Under the pieces are notes generated by a model. That model saw only the letters and a list, made by a program, of their open reading frames with translations, was not told the origin of the DNA and made no database searches. A program made the translations under genes and the position numbers. Below are positions 5,813-13,025 of a stretch of 15,385 nucleotides of DNA, piece after piece (the first letter of the stretch is position 1; the number at the start of each line of letters is the position of its first letter). Source of the stretch: a virus. The stretch lies in IMG/VR virus record IMGVR_UViG_3300035152_000011; one strand, 5' to 3'.

Positions 5813-6198
5813 CGCTCCTCCAGGACGTCGAGAATGTCACGGGCCAGCTCACCGTCGGCGCCAAACGGATCGTGCTCACGCGCGAGCCGCTCGATGCGCA
5901 ATAGCGCCTCCGCGAAGCGCGACGTTCGGATGGCCGGATCACCGTCTTCTTCGCCTTTGACGACACGACGGGCAGCGCCAAGCAATGACCGGCAGTAGTG
6001 ATCGACCAGGCAGTCATTCCACGTTTCGCCGCAGTGCGGGCAGGTCTTCGTCTGGTTCAGGAATTCGTGCGCGTAACGATCCCAGCCGCAAATGCTGCAC
6101 TTGGCCTCACCGAGCCCGAAGACGTGGTAGTTGTAGCCACGGCACAGCGGGATCGTAGCTGTGATCGGGACGCGTTCCTGTCTCGGCTTACCACCCAT
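5809..6198 (-). CDS. zinc-finger protein, 129 aa (CSIC...CPHC)
   Basis: ATG 6198 with GAGAGGTGA upstream. Two CxxC pairs (CSICGW...CPHCGETW) suggest a zinc ribbon. Confidence 0.7.
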   Translation of the reverse strand: MGGKPRQERVPITATIPLCRGYNYHVFGLGEAKCSICGWDRYAHEFLNQTKTCPHCGETWNDCLVDHYCRSLLGAARRVVKGEEDGDPAIRTSRFAEALLRIERLAREHDPFGADGELARDILDVLEER

Positions 6199-6407
6199 CA
6201 GTCACCTCTCGTGTCCCTCGTGCAGTTGCACTGACGAAGCGCCAGGTAGGCGTGCTTCAACCGCAGGCCGTCCTTGTTAAGCGCCGCATCGGGTTCCAGC
6301 GCCAGGTACTTCAGGTTGGGTCGATGGATCGCTTCGAGCGCGTCGAGAAACTCGCGTACGACCACGCTCCGAATCGCCGGCAGGCCATCGACGTTCAGCT
6401 CAGGCAT
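6198..6407 (-). CDS. hypothetical protein, 69 aa
   Basis: Track ORF 6198..6452 trimmed to ATG 6407 (MPELNVDGLPAIRS...). This ATG overlaps (TGATG) the stop of the upstream HTH gene. Confidence 0.5.
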   Translation of the reverse strand: MPELNVDGLPAIRSVVVREFLDALEAIHRPNLKYLALEPDAALNKDGLRLKHAYLALRQCNCTRDTRGD

Positions 6408-6592
6408 CACCACGGCCTCCCCCGCTTGCGGATCACACCCGCATCGCGGCAAATCTGACAGATACGCTCCTTGCTAAGCCCAAACGCTTCGGCCAACTCG
6501 GCGGCTGACGCGCCGGCCACGTAACGCTCGACGATCTTCTCGTTGCGCTCGGGCCGGCTGCGCCAACCGACCTTCCTCCCCCGCTTTGCCAT
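6407..6592 (-). CDS. helix-turn-helix DNA-binding protein, 61 aa
   Basis: Track ORF 6407..6673 trimmed to ATG 6592 (MAKRGRKVGWRSRPERNEKIVERYVAGASAAELAEAFGLSKERICQICRDAGVIRKRGRPW) with GGAGAA 7 nt upstream. The segment SAAELAEAFGLSKERICQI is a classic HTH. Basic N- and C-terminal tails. First gene after a 77-nt gap. Confidence 0.7.
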   Translation of the reverse strand: MAKRGRKVGWRSRPERNEKIVERYVAGASAAELAEAFGLSKERICQICRDAGVIRKRGRPW

Positions 6593-6669
6593 CGTTGTTC
6601 TCCAAGGAAACCAGGGCATGTACCGCATGCTCAGGTTCTCACGCCAGTGTACGGGCACGACGAGTTGAA
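6593..6669 (-). promoter_or_regulatory. 77-nt intergenic gap between ARH stop and HTH gene start; candidate terminator/promoter boundary
   Basis: One of only three non-coding gaps. Contains the short inverted repeat GCATG-n5-CATGC (about 6617..6631) and the RBS for the HTH gene. I could not assign a clean -35/-10. Confidence 0.3.
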
Positions 6670-7602
6670 TCACCGCGGGCCCTCCATGAGTGCTACGTCG
6701 ATCTTGTGCAGCGTCTCGAATTCGCGCAGGCCGGTCTGGTAGCGCTCGGGGATACCTTCCAGCCCGAACCGGGCGCCGAGGATCGCGCCTGTGATCGCGC
6801 CGCGAGTATCGGTGTCCCCACCGCCCCGGATGGCCGCCACGACGCCTTGCTCGAAGTCAGCTGCCCAGGCTGCACAGAAGAGCGCCGTGGCCACGGTCTG
6901 GCTGACGTTCCCGAAGCGGCCGATCTTGCGGATGACCTCGGGCGGCGGCGTAAGACCTTGCATCAGGTAGTAGACCTGCTCGACCAGCTCGAAGACGCGC
7001 GTGCCCACGTAGGTCTCGCCGTACTGGGGCGCCAGGGCTTCCAGAACGGCCTCCAGCAGCCCGTAGCCGCGGACGCCTTCCAGGCTCCGCTTGACCGCCC
7101 AGGCCACTGCGAGTGAGCCTGCGGCCGCCTCGGGGCCCTGGTGCGTGATCGCTGCGTCCTCGACCGACCGTACGACGAGCAGGTCTGGGCTATCGCGGTA
7201 CCAAACGCCCAGAGGCGCGACCCGCATCGCGGTTCCATTGCCGACCGTGAGCGGGTCCTCGAACACGACCCCGGACTGGTTTGGCGGAGTACCAGCGGCC
7301 AGCGCAGCCATCGCTTTCCTGGTCGTCCCGCCCATACCGTGCGGGGTGTCCTGTGCCCAGGCCAGGTAGCGCTGAGCTGCGTCCTCGACCACGTAGCCCT
7401 CATGAGCGATCAGCGACTCAGCCAGAGCCATCGCCATCTCGGTGTCGTCGGTCCAGTGTCCGGCCGGCAGCTTGTGGTGCGTACCCGGCCGGTAGTTACC
7501 TGCCCACGTCGGTAGGTCTTTGTGAACCGCGTCGCCGCGTCGCTCGAAGGGCATTCCGAGCGCGTCCCCGACCGCGAGGCCGACCATGACTGCCGAGGTC
7601 AT
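6670..7602 (-). CDS. ADP-ribosylglycohydrolase (ARH/DraG family), 310 aa
   Basis: Track ORF 6670..7686 trimmed to ATG 7602 (MTSAVMVGLAVGDALGMPFE...) with AAAGGAG 6 nt upstream and an ATGA overlap with the upstream gene. N-terminal GxxxGDALGxPxE motif plus C-terminal GGDTDTRGAITGAILGARFG motif are the two hallmark metal-site segments of the ADP-ribosylglycohydrolase fold (PF03747). Confidence 0.9.
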   Translation of the reverse strand: MTSAVMVGLAVGDALGMPFERRGDAVHKDLPTWAGNYRPGTHHKLPAGHWTDDTEMAMALAESLIAHEGYVVEDAAQRYLAWAQDTPHGMGGTTRKAMAALAAGTPPNQSGVVFEDPLTVGNGTAMRVAPLGVWYRDSPDLLVVRSVEDAAITHQGPEAAAGSLAVAWAVKRSLEGVRGYGLLEAVLEALAPQYGETYVGTRVFELVEQVYYLMQGLTPPPEVIRKIGRFGNVSQTVATALFCAAWAADFEQGVVAAIRGGGDTDTRGAITGAILGARFGLEGIPERYQTGLREFETLHKIDVALMEGPR

Positions 7603-7790
7603 TCCGGCTCCTTTCCGCTGCCCCGACAGCGAACGCAGACGTGCATCATTCCATCGCCGTGGAGACGTTCTCCGCGGCCGTCGCACCAGATGCAGTCGCG
7701 CCGCTCCAAGGCCTTGACCCTGCGCTGGAGATCAGCGACCTGTGCTTCCAGGTCGGTGAAGCGCTTGGAATCGAGCAGTCCGTTAGCCAT
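7599..7790 (-). CDS. small zinc-ribbon protein, 63 aa
   Basis: ATG 7790 (second Met of the track ORF; GAGGGTGA upstream). CIWCDG...CVRCRGSG gives two CxxC pairs. N-terminal coiled-coil-like DLEAQVADLQRRVKALERR. Confidence 0.65.
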   Translation of the reverse strand: MANGLLDSKRFTDLEAQVADLQRRVKALERRDCIWCDGRGERLHGDGMMHVCVRCRGSGKEPE

Positions 7791-7995
7791 CACTCACCCT
7801 CGCGTCCTGCTTGGTAGCCTTCAGTCGGCTGCCGTCCAGGTTCCAACAGTAGCCGTGACGGTCGCGGTGTGGTCCCTCATGACCTGGTGACCGAACGCAC
7901 GGGAAGTCGGCCAGGACCGGGAAGTGTCCCGAGTACTTGCCGCATGATTCCGGCTCGGGCCGAAGGTTCGGATACCTTTCATAGAGCGGGTCCAT
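7783..7995 (-). CDS. small Cys/His-containing protein, 70 aa
   Basis: Track ORF 7783..8349 is mostly S/R/T-rich out-of-frame overlap with the HAD gene. Trimmed to ATG 7995 (MDPLYERYPNLRPEPESCGKYSGHFPVLADFPCVRSPGHEGPHRDRHGYCWNLDG...) with AAAGGA upstream. GC3 about 71%. Overlaps the HAD stop by 17 nt. Confidence 0.5.
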   Translation of the reverse strand: MDPLYERYPNLRPEPESCGKYSGHFPVLADFPCVRSPGHEGPHRDRHGYCWNLDGSRLKATKQDARVSDG

Positions 7996-8605
7996 CTGGT
8001 CCTTTCTGTGCCGACGCGCGAGCCTTGAACATGCGCTCACGAACCTGGCCGAGGTTGTGGCCGTCGTAGATGACGAGGTTCGGATGCGTGATGTCACTGT
8101 TCCACCGCTGCTTGATCGCGACGACCAGCCCGCGCGGCCGGACTTCGAGCCAGGGGAGAAAGTAGGGCGGCCAGTCATCGACCAACACCTTGCCGTAGAC
8201 CAACGACTTCTTCTGGCCGATGGTGACGTGTAGATCGGGGACGTGCTCCTGGCACCACTCGACCTTCTCCATCCAAGCGCGAGGATTCCACGGCCCCTTG
8301 GTAAGCGCGTGGTTCTCGAAGCCCAGACCGCGGGCAACCTCCAGGACATGGAACCCGTGTTCGAGCCGTTGCAAGTTACGCCAGAACCCGACCTGGTTCT
8401 TGATCAACGTGCGCCGCTCGGCAAGGTAGCGGGCCTTGCCGTACCACCAGGGCTCGGCGCCTAAAGGCGTTGTACGGGTCGCGATCTCAGCAGGCGATAC
8501 CAGCCGCTCCATCCCCTCGGCCATCGCAGTATCGTAATCAGCGAGCGTGCCGTCGAGATCGAATAGACAGACCGCATCATGCGGTGTCGGATCGGGCTTC
8601 GCCAT
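7979..8605 (-). CDS. HAD-superfamily phosphatase, NT5C-like 5'(3')-deoxyribonucleotidase family, 208 aa
   Basis: ATG 8605 with AAGGAGG at 7-nt spacing. Motif I FDLDGTLADY (DxDGT) and a motif-IV-like LVDDWP. Size and motif spacing resemble the small capless NT5C nucleotidases. Confidence 0.8.
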   Translation of the reverse strand: MAKPDPTPHDAVCLFDLDGTLADYDTAMAEGMERLVSPAEIATRTTPLGAEPWWYGKARYLAERRTLIKNQVGFWRNLQRLEHGFHVLEVARGLGFENHALTKGPWNPRAWMEKVEWCQEHVPDLHVTIGQKKSLVYGKVLVDDWPPYFLPWLEVRPRGLVVAIKQRWNSDITHPNLVIYDGHNLGQVRERMFKARASAQKGPDGPAL

Positions 8606-9033
8606 CAGTTGTCCTCCTTGTCCTCGGCTATCACGGTCAACGCTGCATCACTCAACGTCCGGCCGAACTGCGCATACAGCTCTCGGACATTGTCCTGGCA
8701 GTGCGCGAAGTCGCCGTGGGGATCGTCGCCGAAGTGCTCGGCCCACGTCTTGACCATCGACCAGTCGCCCTCGATCACTTCCATAACTGCGCTCTCAGCG
8801 AGCGCCGTCGCGAAGTTGGTCGCGCGCTTGATGGCGTCGAGCTGGTGCATCAGCTCAACAACGAAGTGGAGTCGCCGACGGCGCTCGTCGAGCGTCTGCT
8901 GCCCGAACGAGCGCCGAAAGCGCTCCGCGAAGCCGAGGACGAGAAACTCCTGGACCGTCAGCCCGCTGCCGAAGAAGTTGCGTGTTCCCTTAGCGAACCA
9001 CTCGTGGAATTTCTCTTCTCTGTCTTTGCTCAT
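8605..9033 (-). CDS. hypothetical protein, 142 aa
   Basis: ATG 9033 with GAGGAA 5 nt upstream. TGATG overlap with HAD start. Real-looking (MSKDREEKFHEWFAKGTRNFFGSG...). Confidence 0.7.
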   Translation of the reverse strand: MSKDREEKFHEWFAKGTRNFFGSGLTVQEFLVLGFAERFRRSFGQQTLDERRRRLHFVVELMHQLDAIKRATNFATALAESAVMEVIEGDWSMVKTWAEHFGDDPHGDFAHCQDNVRELYAQFGRTLSDAALTVIAEDKEDN

Positions 9034-9035
9034 CT

Positions 9036-9065
9036 GGTTCCTCTTGCTCCGGTGTCCCGGGAACC
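9036..9065 (-). promoter_or_regulatory. small hairpin (GGTTCC-n18-GGAACC, with internal TCCCGGGA palindrome) whose 3' arm overlaps the SD of the 8605..9033 gene
   Basis: Seen directly in the 38-nt spacer between the trx stop and the next start. Could modulate translation or act as a processing site. Weak. Confidence 0.25.
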
Positions 9066-9071
9066 GCCTGC

Positions 9072-9404
9072 TTACGCTTCGGGGAGAAACTTCTTCAGCT
9101 CCTCTTCGATCTCTTTCTTCGGCAACGCGCCGACGAGCTGTGCGACGACTTCCTCACCCTGGAAGATGAGCAGCGTCGGTACGGCCTGGATGCCGTAGCG
9201 GTCGGTGACCTTCGAGGCTTCGTCCACGTTGACCTTGCCGACGCTGAGCTTCCCGTCGTATTGCTTCGCGAGCTGGGCGACGATGGGCCCGATGACTTTG
9301 CAGGGCCCACACCACTCCGCCGTGAAGTCCACGAGCGTGACCTTCGATGCGGTCAAGAAGGCGTCGAAGGTGTCGTCGGTCAGGTCGGTTACTTGCTTGC
9401 TCAT
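9072..9404 (-). CDS. trxA: thioredoxin, 110 aa
   Basis: Track ORF trimmed to ATG 9404 (MSKQVTDLTDDTFDAFL...) with GAGGAA upstream. Active-site WCGPC in the DFTAEWCGPCK context. Full thioredoxin-fold length. First gene downstream of the AT-rich control region. Confidence 0.9.
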   Translation of the reverse strand: MSKQVTDLTDDTFDAFLTASKVTLVDFTAEWCGPCKVIGPIVAQLAKQYDGKLSVGKVNVDEASKVTDRYGIQAVPTLLIFQGEEVVAQLVGALPKKEIEEELKKFLPEA

Positions 9405-9446
9405 GATTTCCTCACGAAAAAAAGTTGGTGGCCGCGCGGTCACGCT

Positions 9447-9490
9447 CTAGCTGCGGGAATTCGGCCGTTCTGTTTTCGAGATGCAGCTAG
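9447..9490. repeat. inverted repeat CTAGCTGC (9447-9454) / GCAGCTAG (9483-9490), 28-nt spacer containing GAATTC and a T-run
   Basis: Seen directly; 8-bp perfect arms. Confidence 0.45.
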
Positions 9491-9501
9491 TGCGATGCGA
9501 T
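9491..9501. repeat. direct repeat copy 1, TGCGATGCGAT (tandem GCGAT)
   Basis: Identical 11-mer recurs at 9570..9580, 79 bp away. Both copies are flanked by CTAG-containing sequence. Confidence 0.5.
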
Positions 9502-9506
9502 TGGCA

Positions 9507-9518
9507 CTTGTATACAAG
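9507..9518. promoter_or_regulatory. perfect 12-bp palindrome CTTGTATACAAG; operator candidate
   Basis: Its reverse complement equals itself. Lies in the divergent control region. Also contains TATACA, a possible -10 for the leftward trx unit. Confidence 0.4.
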
Positions 9519-9569
9519 CACCAAGAACTTTTTTCAGCGACACAGATCGACTTCTCCTTCGAGAATCCC

Positions 9570-9580
9570 TGCGATGCGAT
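9570..9580. repeat. direct repeat copy 2, TGCGATGCGAT
   Basis: See copy 1. Confidence 0.5.
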
Positions 9581-9621
9581 CACTAGATCGGACGTGAGCG
9601 ACGAGTTGCGAAGATCACGTT

Positions 9622-9630
9622 TGGTAGAAT
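9622..9630 (+). promoter_or_regulatory. extended -10 element TGgTAGAAT for the rightward gene
   Basis: TGnTANNNT-type extended -10 sits 52 nt upstream of the 9683 ATG. Only a weak -35 (TTGCGA at 13-nt spacing). Extended -10 promoters are common in actinobacteria. Confidence 0.4.
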
Positions 9631-9682
9631 AGGACATGAAGTCGAACAGTGACGGCCCCGAGGGGCGCAACGGAGATCGAGG

Positions 9683-9982
9683 ATGGCAAAGCGCAAACTG
9701 AATGGTGTCCCCGTGAAGCGCGGGCAGACGTACCGCGTGCGGCGGTCGGGGAAGGCTCCGATCTACGTTCGCGTCGCCCGCGTCACGAACGGGCAGCAGC
9801 CCAAAGCGTTCCTGTATCGAGTGACCCGCAGCGGCCGGCGCGTCGGTCCGCGGCGCATTGTTGCCAGCACCAAGCTGGAGAACAACGAGCTGAAGAAGAC
9901 CTACGCGGTCAACACCATCGCGCACTGGCTCACCTGGCGCGACGACGCCTGGCGCATGCCTGAGAGCTGGGAGCTGGTATAG
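9683..9982 (+). CDS. highly basic 99-aa protein with internal duplication; function unknown (nucleic-acid binding suspected)
   Basis: ATG 9683 preceded by GGAGATCGAGG. GC3 about 86%. Sequence: MAKRKLNGVPVKRGQTYRVRRSGKAPIYVRVARVTNGQQPKAFLYRVTRSGRRVGPRRIVAS... Two YRVxRSGxx(V/I) repeat units. Only plus-strand gene in the window. Confidence 0.75.
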   Translation: MAKRKLNGVPVKRGQTYRVRRSGKAPIYVRVARVTNGQQPKAFLYRVTRSGRRVGPRRIVASTKLENNELKKTYAVNTIAHWLTWRDDAWRMPESWELV

Positions 9983-9984
9983 CG

Positions 9985-10446
9985 TCACGGCTTCCTCCAG
10001 GTAGGCGGAGGCGGCAGCTCGGCCTGGATGCGATCCAGAAACGCAAACAGCTCGGCGTTCGGCACGTCCACCACAGACAGGTCGGCCCCTGCGACCTCTC
10101 CGGTATCGACGTAGCGCCACCAACCTCGTTTCCCATCCGGGTAGTGCGGGTTAGCGGCTTCAGCGTCGTACTTTACCAGTCGGTCGGTGTTCTTGTCGGA
10201 CGTGCCGAGGCTCTCGACGACCTCGATGTCGTCGGGGACGTCGATCTCCATATCGACTGCCCCTGCCACTGTGCCGAATGGTGGACCTTGCTCCCAGTGA
10301 TACTCCGTGAATAGGAAGCGCTGGCTGAACTTCACGCGGATTCCGATAAAGCCATCCTTGCCGTCGAAGACACCGACACGCAGGTTGCGACACCGCAGTC
10401 GGTAGACGCGACCCTTGACGCATTCCTTGAGTGGTGTCAGTTCCAT
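9985..10446 (-). CDS. hypothetical protein, 153 aa
   Basis: Track ORF 9985..10725 trimmed to ATG 10446 (MELTPLKECVKGRVYRLRCRNLRVGVFDG...LPPPPTWRKP), which overlaps (TGATG) the upstream stop. The upstream 93 codons of the track ORF look out-of-frame. Confidence 0.65.
   Translation of the reverse strand: MELTPLKECVKGRVYRLRCRNLRVGVFDGKDGFIGIRVKFSQRFLFTEYHWEQGPPFGTVAGAVDMEIDVPDDIEVVESLGTSDKNTDRLVKYDAEAANPHYPDGKRGWWRYVDTGEVAGADLSVVDVPNAELFAFLDRIQAELPPPPTWRKP
9990..10015. terminator. candidate bidirectional hairpin (GCTTCCTCC-n8-GGAGGCGGC) just past the convergent gene ends
   Basis: 9-bp stem with one mismatch and one G.U pair. No U-tract. Lies inside the C-terminal codons of the minus-strand gene. 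Weak. Confidence 0.25.
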
Positions 10447-12047: not shown

Positions 12048-13025
12048 CTAGTACCGTGATTTGGGCCGTTGCGCGGCAATCGCAATCGCCATCGCGTAGG
12101 CCGCGTCCATGAGCTTGTCGAGCGGTTCGAGCAAGAAGTCGCTGCCAGTCGCTGCACGGTCGAGCCACAGCTTACGGAGCGCGACCTCCATATCCGGCTG
12201 GGTGACGTTTCCGCCCTTGGGTATCTGATAATCAGCGCGCCGCAGGAGCGGCCCCAGCTCGTCCAGCCTACCCCAGTTGCAGAGGTCTGTGGGGACGTGG
12301 CTCGCGTCGGTGAGCTGCATGCCGGTGAAGTCGCAGCGGTTGTGCCCCTCGTGAGAAATGCCTTGAAGGCTTGCCCCGGACAGATCGGCATTGGCCAAGG
12401 TCGTACCCCGCAGGACGGCCTTATCCAAAGACGCTCCGCGTAGCGACGCACCAGTGAAATTGGCGTCATCGAGCTTCGCGCCTCGAAGGTCAGCGCCGTC
12501 GAGGCACGCTCCAGAGAAGTCAGCGTCGTTCAACGCGGCCCCGCGCAGGTCGGCACCTTCGAGTGAAGTGGACGCGAACCGCGGCTTGCTGTGAAACACA
12601 GCCTTGCGGAGATCGGCTTTGTCGAACACAGCGCCGAGCGCATTGCAGTTACTGAACACCGCCTCACGCATCTTCGCAGCGCTGAAGTCGGTGTCCGGGA
12701 CGTTCGCGCCTGTCAGATCCACGCCCGGCATACTCGCACCCACGAAGATCGCGCCATCGGCGTTGGCCCCTTCCAGGACTGCCCTAGCGAAATCTGCCTT
12801 TGACAGATCGCACGCGGTCAGGTTGACGTGCTTCAAGGTGAGTCCTGCGAAGTCGAAGCCAACGTAGTCGCGCCGCTGGAAGTCAGCGCGTTCGAGCGGC
12901 ACGCGGGCGAGCAGCGCCCAGCTCTCGCGGGGCGTCATGTCCTCGAACGTGACTTTGCGGCCGTCGAACAGCATGATCTCTGGATCGCTAGACTCTTCTG
13001 CGGTGTGCTCGGGTTCCTTGGTCAT
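12048..13025 (-). CDS. pentapeptide-repeat protein, 325 aa
   Basis: ATG 13025 in an ATGA overlap with the upstream stop. Residues about 55-225 are tandem A(D/N)LxG-type pentapeptides (...ADLRGAALNDADFSGACLDGADLRGAKLDDANFTGASLRGASLDKAVLRGTTLANADLSGASLQG...), predicting a right-handed quadrilateral beta-helix. Non-repeat N- and C-terminal extensions. Confidence 0.85.
   Translation of the reverse strand: MTKEPEHTAEESSDPEIMLFDGRKVTFEDMTPRESWALLARVPLERADFQRRDYVGFDFAGLTLKHVNLTACDLSKADFARAVLEGANADGAIFVGASMPGVDLTGANVPDTDFSAAKMREAVFSNCNALGAVFDKADLRKAVFHSKPRFASTSLEGADLRGAALNDADFSGACLDGADLRGAKLDDANFTGASLRGASLDKAVLRGTTLANADLSGASLQGISHEGHNRCDFTGMQLTDASHVPTDLCNWGRLDELGPLLRRADYQIPKGGNVTQPDMEVALRKLWLDRAATGSDFLLEPLDKLMDAAYAMAIAIAAQRPKSRY
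12350..12860. repeat. tandem 15-nt periodic DNA repeats = coding repeats of the pentapeptide-repeat gene
   Basis: Periodicity is visible even in the antisense track ORFs (APRRSAPS recurring). Fully explained by the PRP coding sequence. Approximate bounds. Confidence 0.6.

Follow-up and report, generated by a model that had tools for sequence, protein, structure and literature searches.

The subject of this analysis is a gene for an ADP-ribosylglycohydrolase (ARH) carried on a stretch of viral DNA of 15,385 nucleotides (nt), IMG/VR record IMGVR_UViG_3300035152_000011, the whole of which we call the window. Such an enzyme had been predicted from the letters alone, as full-length and apparently catalytically intact, at positions 6670–7602. 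This assignment is borne out by the present work, with the addition that the gene, which encodes 310 amino acids (aa), lies on the minus strand, a point left unstated in the original prediction (Table 1). The minus strand carries all credible genes of the window except one plus-strand open reading frame (ORF), at 9683–9982. A longer reading frame of 338 aa, opening with a GTG codon, also exists for the ARH gene (6670–7686). We prefer the ATG start because it is preceded by a Shine-Dalgarno sequence, because two independent gene callers picked it, both giving 310 aa, and because it fits the N-termini of 82 aligned homologues. The gene is joined at both ends: the ATGA overlap with a 63-aa ORF upstream that had been pointed out originally is real, and downstream the GTG start (6673) of a small helix-turn-helix (HTH) protein overlaps the ARH stop codon as GTGA, this HTH gene being kept in synteny at the related loci L008 and L009. 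Promoter and terminator scans of positions 6000–10000 gave no sites above shuffled expectation. The ARH gene has its own Shine-Dalgarno sequence and sits in a long block of small accessory genes that are tightly packed and run in one direction.

Table 1. Features at and around the ARH gene, in window coordinates; residue numbers are those of the 310-aa protein.
Feature	Position	Strand	Remarks
Small HTH protein, sigma-70 region-4-like, downstream of ARH	6407–6673	minus	Pfam Sigma70_r4, E=6.3e-6
ARH gene (ADP-ribosylglycohydrolase), 310 aa	6670–7602	minus	ATG 7602–7600, stop 6672–6670
C-terminal metal-site segment GGDTDTRGAITGAILGA, residues 261–277	6772–6822	minus	D263/D265/T266 = ARH3 D314/D316/T317
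ITHQ, residues 152–155, superfamily Thr-His motif	7138–7149	minus	T153 and H154 invariant; H154 = ARH3 H182
ADP-ribose-binding motif GNGTAMR, residues 121–127	7222–7242	minus	G121, M126 and R127 invariant; aligns with ARH3 GNGGAMR
Loop PHGMGGTTR, residues 87–95	7318–7344	minus	G89 at the DraG Asp97 position; G89 and G91 invariant in the clade
Metal-ligand motif WTDDTE, residues 50–55	7438–7455	minus	T51/D52/D53 = ARH3 T76/D77/D78
N-terminal active-site segment GLAVGDALGMPFE, residues 8–20	7543–7581	minus	E20 = ARH3 Glu41 = DraG Glu28; E20 invariant
63-aa ORF upstream of ARH, overlapping it by ATGA (7599–7602)	7599–7790	minus	Coiled-coil-like N-terminal helix and two CxxCxGxG motifs
Shine-Dalgarno AAGGAG, 5 nt before the ARH ATG, within the 3' end of the upstream ORF	7608–7613	minus	Direct reading of the sequence
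HAD-family 5'(3')-deoxyribonucleotidase-like phosphatase NT5C, two genes upstream of ARH	7979–8605	minus	Pfam NT5C, E=9.7e-7

Membership of the ARH superfamily is supported at the level of both profile and fold. The Pfam family PF03747 (ADP_ribosyl_GH) is matched at E=2.3e-73, and its score of 247.8 bits against a cut-off of 26.2 is far beyond chance; the alignment places residues 5–287 of the protein on profile positions 2–287 of 287, so that the domain is present in full. The phage ARH family PHROG 6572 is matched as well (E=3.7e-43, profile positions 11–287 of 325). An AlphaFold2 model built with the alignment of relatives is all-helical, with a predicted local distance difference test (pLDDT) of 97.4 and a predicted template-modelling score (pTM) of 0.95. 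When it was compared with the PDB by Foldseek, the top 50 matches were all ARH structures, MJ1187 being the best with a template-modelling score (TM) of 0.85; the matches include MJ1187, the Thermus thermophilus ARH-related protein, DraG, Tri1, Lmo0067 and ARH3, with TM 0.77–0.85. Thus the structural check that had been recommended was carried through for the fold, which matches solved ARH/DraG structures, while individual residues were mapped onto ARH3 and DraG at the level of sequence.

The active site is complete. Both metal-site segments that had been described as unbroken were found exactly so, one near each end of the protein. Across an alignment of 82 ARH relatives with 39–82% identity, E20, D52, D53, T153, H154, D263 and D265 are invariant, and T51, T54 and T266 are each shared by at least 90% of the sequences. 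Profile alignment with human ARH3 (hhalign, probability 99.7%) pairs the metal-site and catalytic residues with their ARH3 counterparts as given in Table 1, so that the ARH3-type residue set (Glu41, Asp77/Asp78 and Asp314/Asp316/Thr317) is present throughout; the human query sequence was checked against PDB entry 6d36, from which it differs at four positions, all outside the motifs. ARH3 structures mutated at E41, D77 and D314 are included in the PDB match list. The Thr-His pair corresponds to a conserved motif already described for the ARH superfamily (PMC9503650). We therefore find no substitution of the Asp/Thr metal ligands, and the pseudo-enzyme reading is ruled out by intact metal-site and catalytic residues that are invariant, or at least 90% conserved, among relatives. 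From these patterns the protein is apparently a metal-dependent ADP-ribosyl-acceptor hydrolase of the ARH/DraG superfamily, full-length and predicted to be catalytically competent.

Assignment to a particular ARH type is less straightforward. With DraG, the window ARH shares the fold, the metal ligands and the GDALG...E, TDDTE and GGDxDT motifs, but it differs in three respects. It scores 113 bits against the DraG equivalog TIGR02662, where the cut-off is 337.05. The aspartate of the DraG P-x-D-x-G loop, Asp97 in Rhodospirillum rubrum numbering, is replaced by Gly89, which is invariant in the clade; the sole residue that differs between the DraG structures 2woe (D97N) and 2woc (wild type) aligns to this same glycine. 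Finally, no DraT or nitrogenase domain was found in Pfam scans of the window or in the annotation of the source contig, about 33 kb in all, comprising a 24-kb contig (JGI 3300042731) with precomputed gene-call annotation and a 9-kb extension, L107. Human ARH3 likewise has glycine at the Asp97 position in the hhalign alignment. Because Gly89 stands where DraG has Asp97, the active site can be called ARH3-like rather than DraG-like at this one position.

Human ARH3 (ADPRS/ADPRHL2), which hydrolyses serine-linked ADP-ribose and poly(ADP-ribose), shares the full catalytic and metal-binding set and the fold (TM 0.76–0.84), but it is 363 aa long, compared with the 310 aa of the prokaryotic-viral ARH, and the two are just about 22–24% identical, which makes transfer of its substrate unsafe. 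The best solved matches are the T. thermophilus ARH-related protein (2cwc/2yzv, E=3.4e-30) and Methanocaldococcus MJ1187 (1t5j, E=1.9e-26). These resemble the window ARH in fold (TM 0.78–0.87) and length but are 26–33% identical to it, and as structural-genomics proteins without an assigned biological substrate they allow no functional transfer. The ARHs that confer immunity to ADP-ribosyltransferase (ART) toxins, Tri1 (6dre) and Lmo0067 (8za7), have the same fold (TM 0.78–0.80) and also operate in a setting of conflict. They differ in carrying an N-terminal toxin-binding extension, with total lengths of 332–366 aa, whereas the window ARH has neither the extension nor an adjoining ART toxin gene. 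Membership of the Tri1 immunity family (NF041672) was rejected, the score being 85.3 bits against a cut-off of 490 and no ART effector gene adjoining.

The phage-like setting that had been described is confirmed. Few window ORFs match Pfam: those that do encode a thioredoxin, an NT5C-type phosphatase, a pentapeptide-repeat protein, a phage zinc-binding domain and a small HTH. Three ORFs strongly match PHROG families (phrog_23621, phrog_3740 and phrog_6452), and their tblastn relatives lie in phages of 130–500 kb, namely those of Mesorhizobium, Sphingobium and Erythrobacter, Yersinia phiR1-37, Cronobacter GAP31-like phages and Bacillus phage G. The other genes of the window resemble, by tblastn, genes of large phages of Proteobacteria, Microbacterium and Bacillus, and an identical ARH protein is encoded on a contig of 143 kb. 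On the strength of the PHROG matches, the large-phage relatives and this contig, the window comes from a large phage. A nucleotide search with positions 6000–8700 found no match among 50,697 phage records, and hence no close sequenced relative; no tRNA genes were found in the window.

The relatives of the ARH itself lead to the same kind of virus. Those with 47–82% identity sit on phage-like metagenomic contigs. Among them, the contigs of L008 and L009/L010 are syntenic with the window and encode ARHs 82% and 65% identical, respectively, to that of the window, while L002, L006, L007, L011, L109 and L110 are contigs of 184–502 kb with long arrays of small unannotated ORFs. The L009/L010 protein (L009:5455–6567) is 370 aa long and extends at its C-terminus by about 60 aa that the window ARH lacks. 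Could the gene instead be a recent acquisition from a host, or a decaying, non-catalytic copy, without a dedicated role in infection? ARH genes are common in bacteria: a pattern search of 185,579 prokaryotic species, one genome per species, gave at least 510 confirmed matches. However, the best cellular match among those listed, from an unclassified metagenome-assembled genome, is 40% identical, and most are at or below 33%, so a closer cellular copy is not likely to exist. This, set against the 47–82% identity on phage-like contigs, argues that the gene is not recent host cargo. Further, the gene is syntenic across related phages whose ARHs have diverged to 65% identity, its neighbourhood is not host-like, and its G+C content is raised just slightly (0.66–0.67 over the gene compared with about 0.58–0.64 elsewhere in the window). 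Decay, for its part, is contradicted by the conserved catalytic residues. We regard both versions of this explanation as extremely improbable. Judged from its relatives, the ARH appears to be one of a lineage whose main carriers are large and huge tailed phages.

A stand-alone ARH in a phage, held to be unusual in the original prediction, turns out to be nothing of the kind. A tblastn search located ARH genes in 40 deposited records of phages; 11 of these are Streptomyces phages, and many are jumbo phages. ARHs are also present among the BFVD viral structures. According to a 2022 survey, about 5% of jumbo phages carry an ARH, and the enzymes turn up sporadically among actinobacterial phages (PMC9503650). 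The phage ARHs of PHROG 6572 are stand-alone, single-domain proteins of the same superfamily found among the accessory genes of large phages; examples come from Serratia phage BF, jumbo phages of Erwinia and Salmonella, Bacillus phage G (gp234), the Streptomyces phage "hydrolase" gp73–78 group and the uncultured huge phage LR745208.1. The window ARH is just 23–48% identical to any deposited phage copy; it adds to an already known sort of phage accessory enzyme. The survey of actinophages that had been suggested accordingly yielded ARHs, in the 11 Streptomyces phages, but these are 25–29% identical to the window ARH, and the best relatives of the genes neighbouring it are in phages of Alpha- and Gammaproteobacteria; the actinophage origin previously assumed is not supported.

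The 63-aa protein encoded immediately upstream had been called a zinc ribbon and put forward as a possible specificity or partner subunit. Its two CxxCxGxG motifs (CIWCDGRG at residue 33 and CVRCRGSG at residue 52) are the signature of one DnaJ-type zinc finger. The homologue in L009 keeps both motifs (CRQCEGRG and CGHCDGTG), and in that of L025 they can be seen in part (CTRCRGTG). No Pfam family matches the protein at E≤0.01, and there is a weak match to an NCBIfam DnaJ model (E=0.0046, 16.4 bits against a cut-off of 377). Among 5.8 billion proteins there are two matches, one being the protein itself and the other a single relative, and IMG/VR holds no relative; the family is therefore too small for a co-occurrence test beyond the lineage of the window.

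If the two proteins formed a two-subunit enzyme, in which the translationally coupled zinc-finger protein gave the ARH its substrate specificity or targeting, one could cite the ATGA overlap itself and the retention of the pair, again with a 4-nt overlap, in L009/L010, where both proteins are 65% identical to those of the window. Outside these loci and the window, with L001 of the same sequence, the 63-aa gene does not adjoin ARH. In L008, which has the closest ARH relative (82%), an unrelated 125-aa ORF takes the place of the zinc-finger gene, with a 4-nt overlap, and the same overlap joins ARH to an unrelated, Cys-poor 66-aa ORF in L002 and to another unrelated ORF, of 179 aa, in L110. Besides L008, L002 and L110, 15 other ARH loci lack any zinc-finger homologue; none was found beside ARH in L008, L002, L006, L007, L011–L024 or L110. 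Conversely, in L025, which is syntenic with the window, the zinc-finger gene (75% identical) is followed by a different, Cys-rich ORF, and the contig ends before the ARH position. This ORF (L025:8219–8448, motif CDCSCG...SCGC) is perhaps an insertion that resembles a homing endonuclease. Overlaps of 1 or 4 nt are found at 17 of the 32 same-strand junctions of the window, and paired CxxC motifs in 3 of its 33 ORFs. Given the frequency of overlapping junctions and the patchy adjacency, both the overlap and the neighbouring position are what chance and lineage synteny predict. The rarity of the zinc-finger family in protein databases, and the fact that the solved ARHs in the PDB match list are stand-alone catalytic chains, also count against a two-subunit enzyme, which we consider very unlikely. 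We take the zinc-finger protein to be an unrelated, lineage-specific gene and see no support for a functional link between it and the ARH.

What such an enzyme might do in infection can be approached by analogy. The explanation that we tentatively prefer, with a probability of roughly 45%, is that this phage-lineage ARH erases ADP-ribose marks placed by the host. During infection, the enzyme would bind the ADP-ribose moiety of a modified macromolecule, and its two-metal centre (E20, T51/D52/D53 and D263/D265/T266, with H154) would cut the C1'' glycosidic bond by hydrolysis, so that ADP-ribose is set free and the target returns to its unmodified state. Its role would then most likely be one of counter-defence, in which ADP-ribose put by a host ART on phage macromolecules, or on essential host ones, is removed, in parallel with the T4 proteins AdfN (NADAR) and AdfM (macrodomain). 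The likeness to these two lies in the proposed role of an orphan eraser in a lytic phage (PMC11825919; bioRxiv 10.1101/2025.11.20.689424); they differ in that their folds are unrelated to ARH and their substrates are base-linked DNA ADP-ribose.

Several published observations are in keeping with the proposed eraser role. Phage ADP-ribosylglycohydrolase (ARG) domains have been predicted to prefer macromolecular ADP-ribose (ADPr) conjugates (PMC9503650), phage-encoded erasers defeat DarT defence (PMC11825919; bioRxiv 10.1101/2025.11.20.689424), and SCO5809, an ARH-like enzyme, takes ADPr off the phosphate ends of RNA and DNA (PMC11833690). The substrate would probably be an O-linked or phosphate-linked ADP-ribose, for example Ser-ADPr-like marks on proteins or ADP-ribosylated phosphate ends of RNA or DNA. 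A strictly DraG-type arginine hydrolase is disfavoured because of the ARH3-like active site, in which the equivalent of DraG Asp97 is absent, and an external writer, that is, one of the host, is favoured because no ART domain was found in the scanned phage regions. Other considerations weigh against the proposal. The ARH-like enzymes tested so far did not act on guanine-linked or 2'-OH-linked ADPr (PMC11833690), which leads us to favour protein- or phosphate-linked ADP-ribose over base-linked. The best-known anti-phage ARTs, DarT1 and DarT2, produce ADPr of the base-linked kind, and NADAR proteins or macrodomains reverse it. The literature searched contains no characterised phage ARH and none with an assigned substrate or role. 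The assignment of a substrate class comes from a single Gly/Asp position, and is correspondingly weak. In addition, the part of the source contig inspected amounts to about 33 kb of at least 143 kb, and Pfam misses divergent ARTs.

This last point bears on whether the writer might be the phage's own. The ARH could temper or time the modifications that a phage ART introduces, as T4 Alt/ModA/ModB or a phage PARP do, or it could be the antidote in a toxin-antitoxin-like ART-ARH pair. Aeromonas phages carry ART-ARG pairs, ARTs are abundant in jumbo phages (PMC9503650, PMC7824862), and the solved relatives include the ART-immunity ARHs Tri1 and Lmo0067. By Pfam, however, there is no ART domain in the window ORFs, nor in the precomputed annotation of the rest of the roughly 33 kb of source contig inspected. 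We also surveyed with Pfam the 136 ORFs within 3 kb of ARH relatives at 18 huge-phage loci, and at 17 of the 18 no ART domain was found within 3 kb on either side. At the remaining locus, L021, on an IMG/VR contig of 373 kb, a 529-aa protein with a PARP catalytic domain is encoded 2.9 kb upstream of the ARH gene (L021:1514–3100, plus strand; best Pfam E=1.8e-21, phmmer E=8.7e-16 against the PARP1 catalytic domain), and the two could be a phage writer-eraser pair. The L021 ARH is, however, the most distant of the relatives, with 26% identity, and no ART stands beside any ARH of the window's own clade. Together with a score so far under the cut-off of the Tri1 model, this makes an action on the phage's own ADP-ribosylation unlikely in our view.

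The same survey bears on another alternative, that the ARH acts on soluble or RNA-end derivatives of ADP-ribose rather than on modified proteins. Candidates would be the 2' or 3' cyclic ADP-ribose (2'cADPR or 3'cADPR) signals of TIR/Thoeris systems, in which riboses are joined by O-glycosidic bonds. O-acetyl-ADP-ribose and ADP-ribose-1''-phosphate would be others, as would RNA ends that become ADP-ribosylated when RNA is damaged and repaired. In poly(ADP-ribose), ARH3 breaks O-glycosidic bonds between riboses, and it also hydrolyses O-acetyl-ADP-ribose; since the catalytic set of the window ARH is ARH3-like, we count this chemistry in favour. Recurrent families among the neighbours of huge-phage ARHs are PTH2 (5 ORFs), dual-specificity phosphatase (4), Ro60/TROVE (3) and UvrD-type helicase (3), with RtcB, Thg1, NAPRTase and the PARP catalytic domain as single cases. 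A YpsA-SLOG protein is found near ARH in L002 and, by BLAST clustering, also in L012, L014, L016 and L019. NT5C is near ARH in four loci, with homologues in L002, L009 and L025. On the source contig, the RNA-repair nucleotidyltransferase RlaP is encoded 6.3 kb downstream of ARH, directly past the low-coordinate end of the window. These families point, loosely and weakly, to NAD/ADP-ribose and RNA-repair themes, and the RNA-repair and NAD genes among them (PTH2, Ro60/TROVE, RtcB, Thg1, NAPRTase, YpsA-SLOG and RlaP) would suit an enzyme for soluble or RNA-end substrates. As hints they are limited: several loci are interrelated, most of those concerned coming from one group of related phages, and flanking genes are often on the opposite strand, as in the Ro60(-)/ARH(+)/PTH2(-) order of L012 and L014.

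It is also relevant that cADPR isomers are cleaved by the phage glycosidase RyDEP, which has a different fold (PMC13232231), although no ARH was reported to cleave them in the literature searched, and the 2022 survey argued for macromolecular conjugates (PMC9503650). We hold a soluble or RNA-end substrate to be possible but improbable. More speculative still, and in our estimation a rather poor bet, is the proposal that the ARH lineage of large and huge phages constitutes a dedicated viral enzyme class for a non-protein ADP-ribose linkage used in immunity; if true, a new enzymatic activity, in anti-defence or in RNA repair, would be added to those of the ARH fold.

Some features of these neighbourhoods deserve record in their own right. 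In one group of huge phages, a Ro60/TROVE-vWA gene lies on one side of ARH (L012:4151–5857, L014:4213–5847 and L016:2129–3826, all minus strand) and a PTH2 gene on the other (L012:7186–7503, minus strand), with a dual-specificity phosphatase nearby, and in L012 and L014 the Ro60 gene abuts ARH directly; the group looks like an RNA-quality-control cluster. Also within a few kb of ARH on huge-phage contigs are a UvrD-type helicase with an intein-like segment (L022:9078–11444; Intein_splicing E=6.6e-7) and a TnpB/Cas12f-like ORF (L012:9412–10818). A DUF2201 (vWA/metallopeptidase-like) protein is encoded upstream on the source contig, beyond the window. In the window, an ORF of 142 aa (8605–9033, minus strand) without Pfam or PHROG match lies just upstream of NT5C; this recurrent neighbour has homologues a few kb from ARH in L016 (9208–9582) and L019 (11804–12190), on contigs of 407 and 448 kb, and another in L025 (6939–7373).

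Elsewhere in the window, the pentapeptide-repeat protein (325 aa, 12048–13025, minus strand; Pfam Pentapeptide E=1.5e-39) has weak MfpA/Qnr-type similarity and is kept in L025; by mimicking DNA, it might inhibit a DNA-binding enzyme of the host. The lone plus-strand gene encodes a basic protein of 99 aa that is conserved in L025. It is separated from the thioredoxin gene by a non-coding gap of 278 nt (9405–9682), which may be a divergent regulatory region.

ADP-ribosylation is a major currency of conflict between phages and bacteria, as exemplified by DarT, CmdT, Thoeris and the phage Alt/Mod enzymes. Phage erasers of the macrodomain and NADAR folds have been shown to defeat defence systems, and ARH is a third eraser fold. 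Against this background, the finding is one of correct annotation more than of surprise; the partnership with the zinc-finger protein would have been the novel part. The window ARH is a clean, apparently intact member of a lineage that seems to be largely confined to large phages, which makes it a sensible choice if a phage ARH is to be characterised biochemically for the first time.

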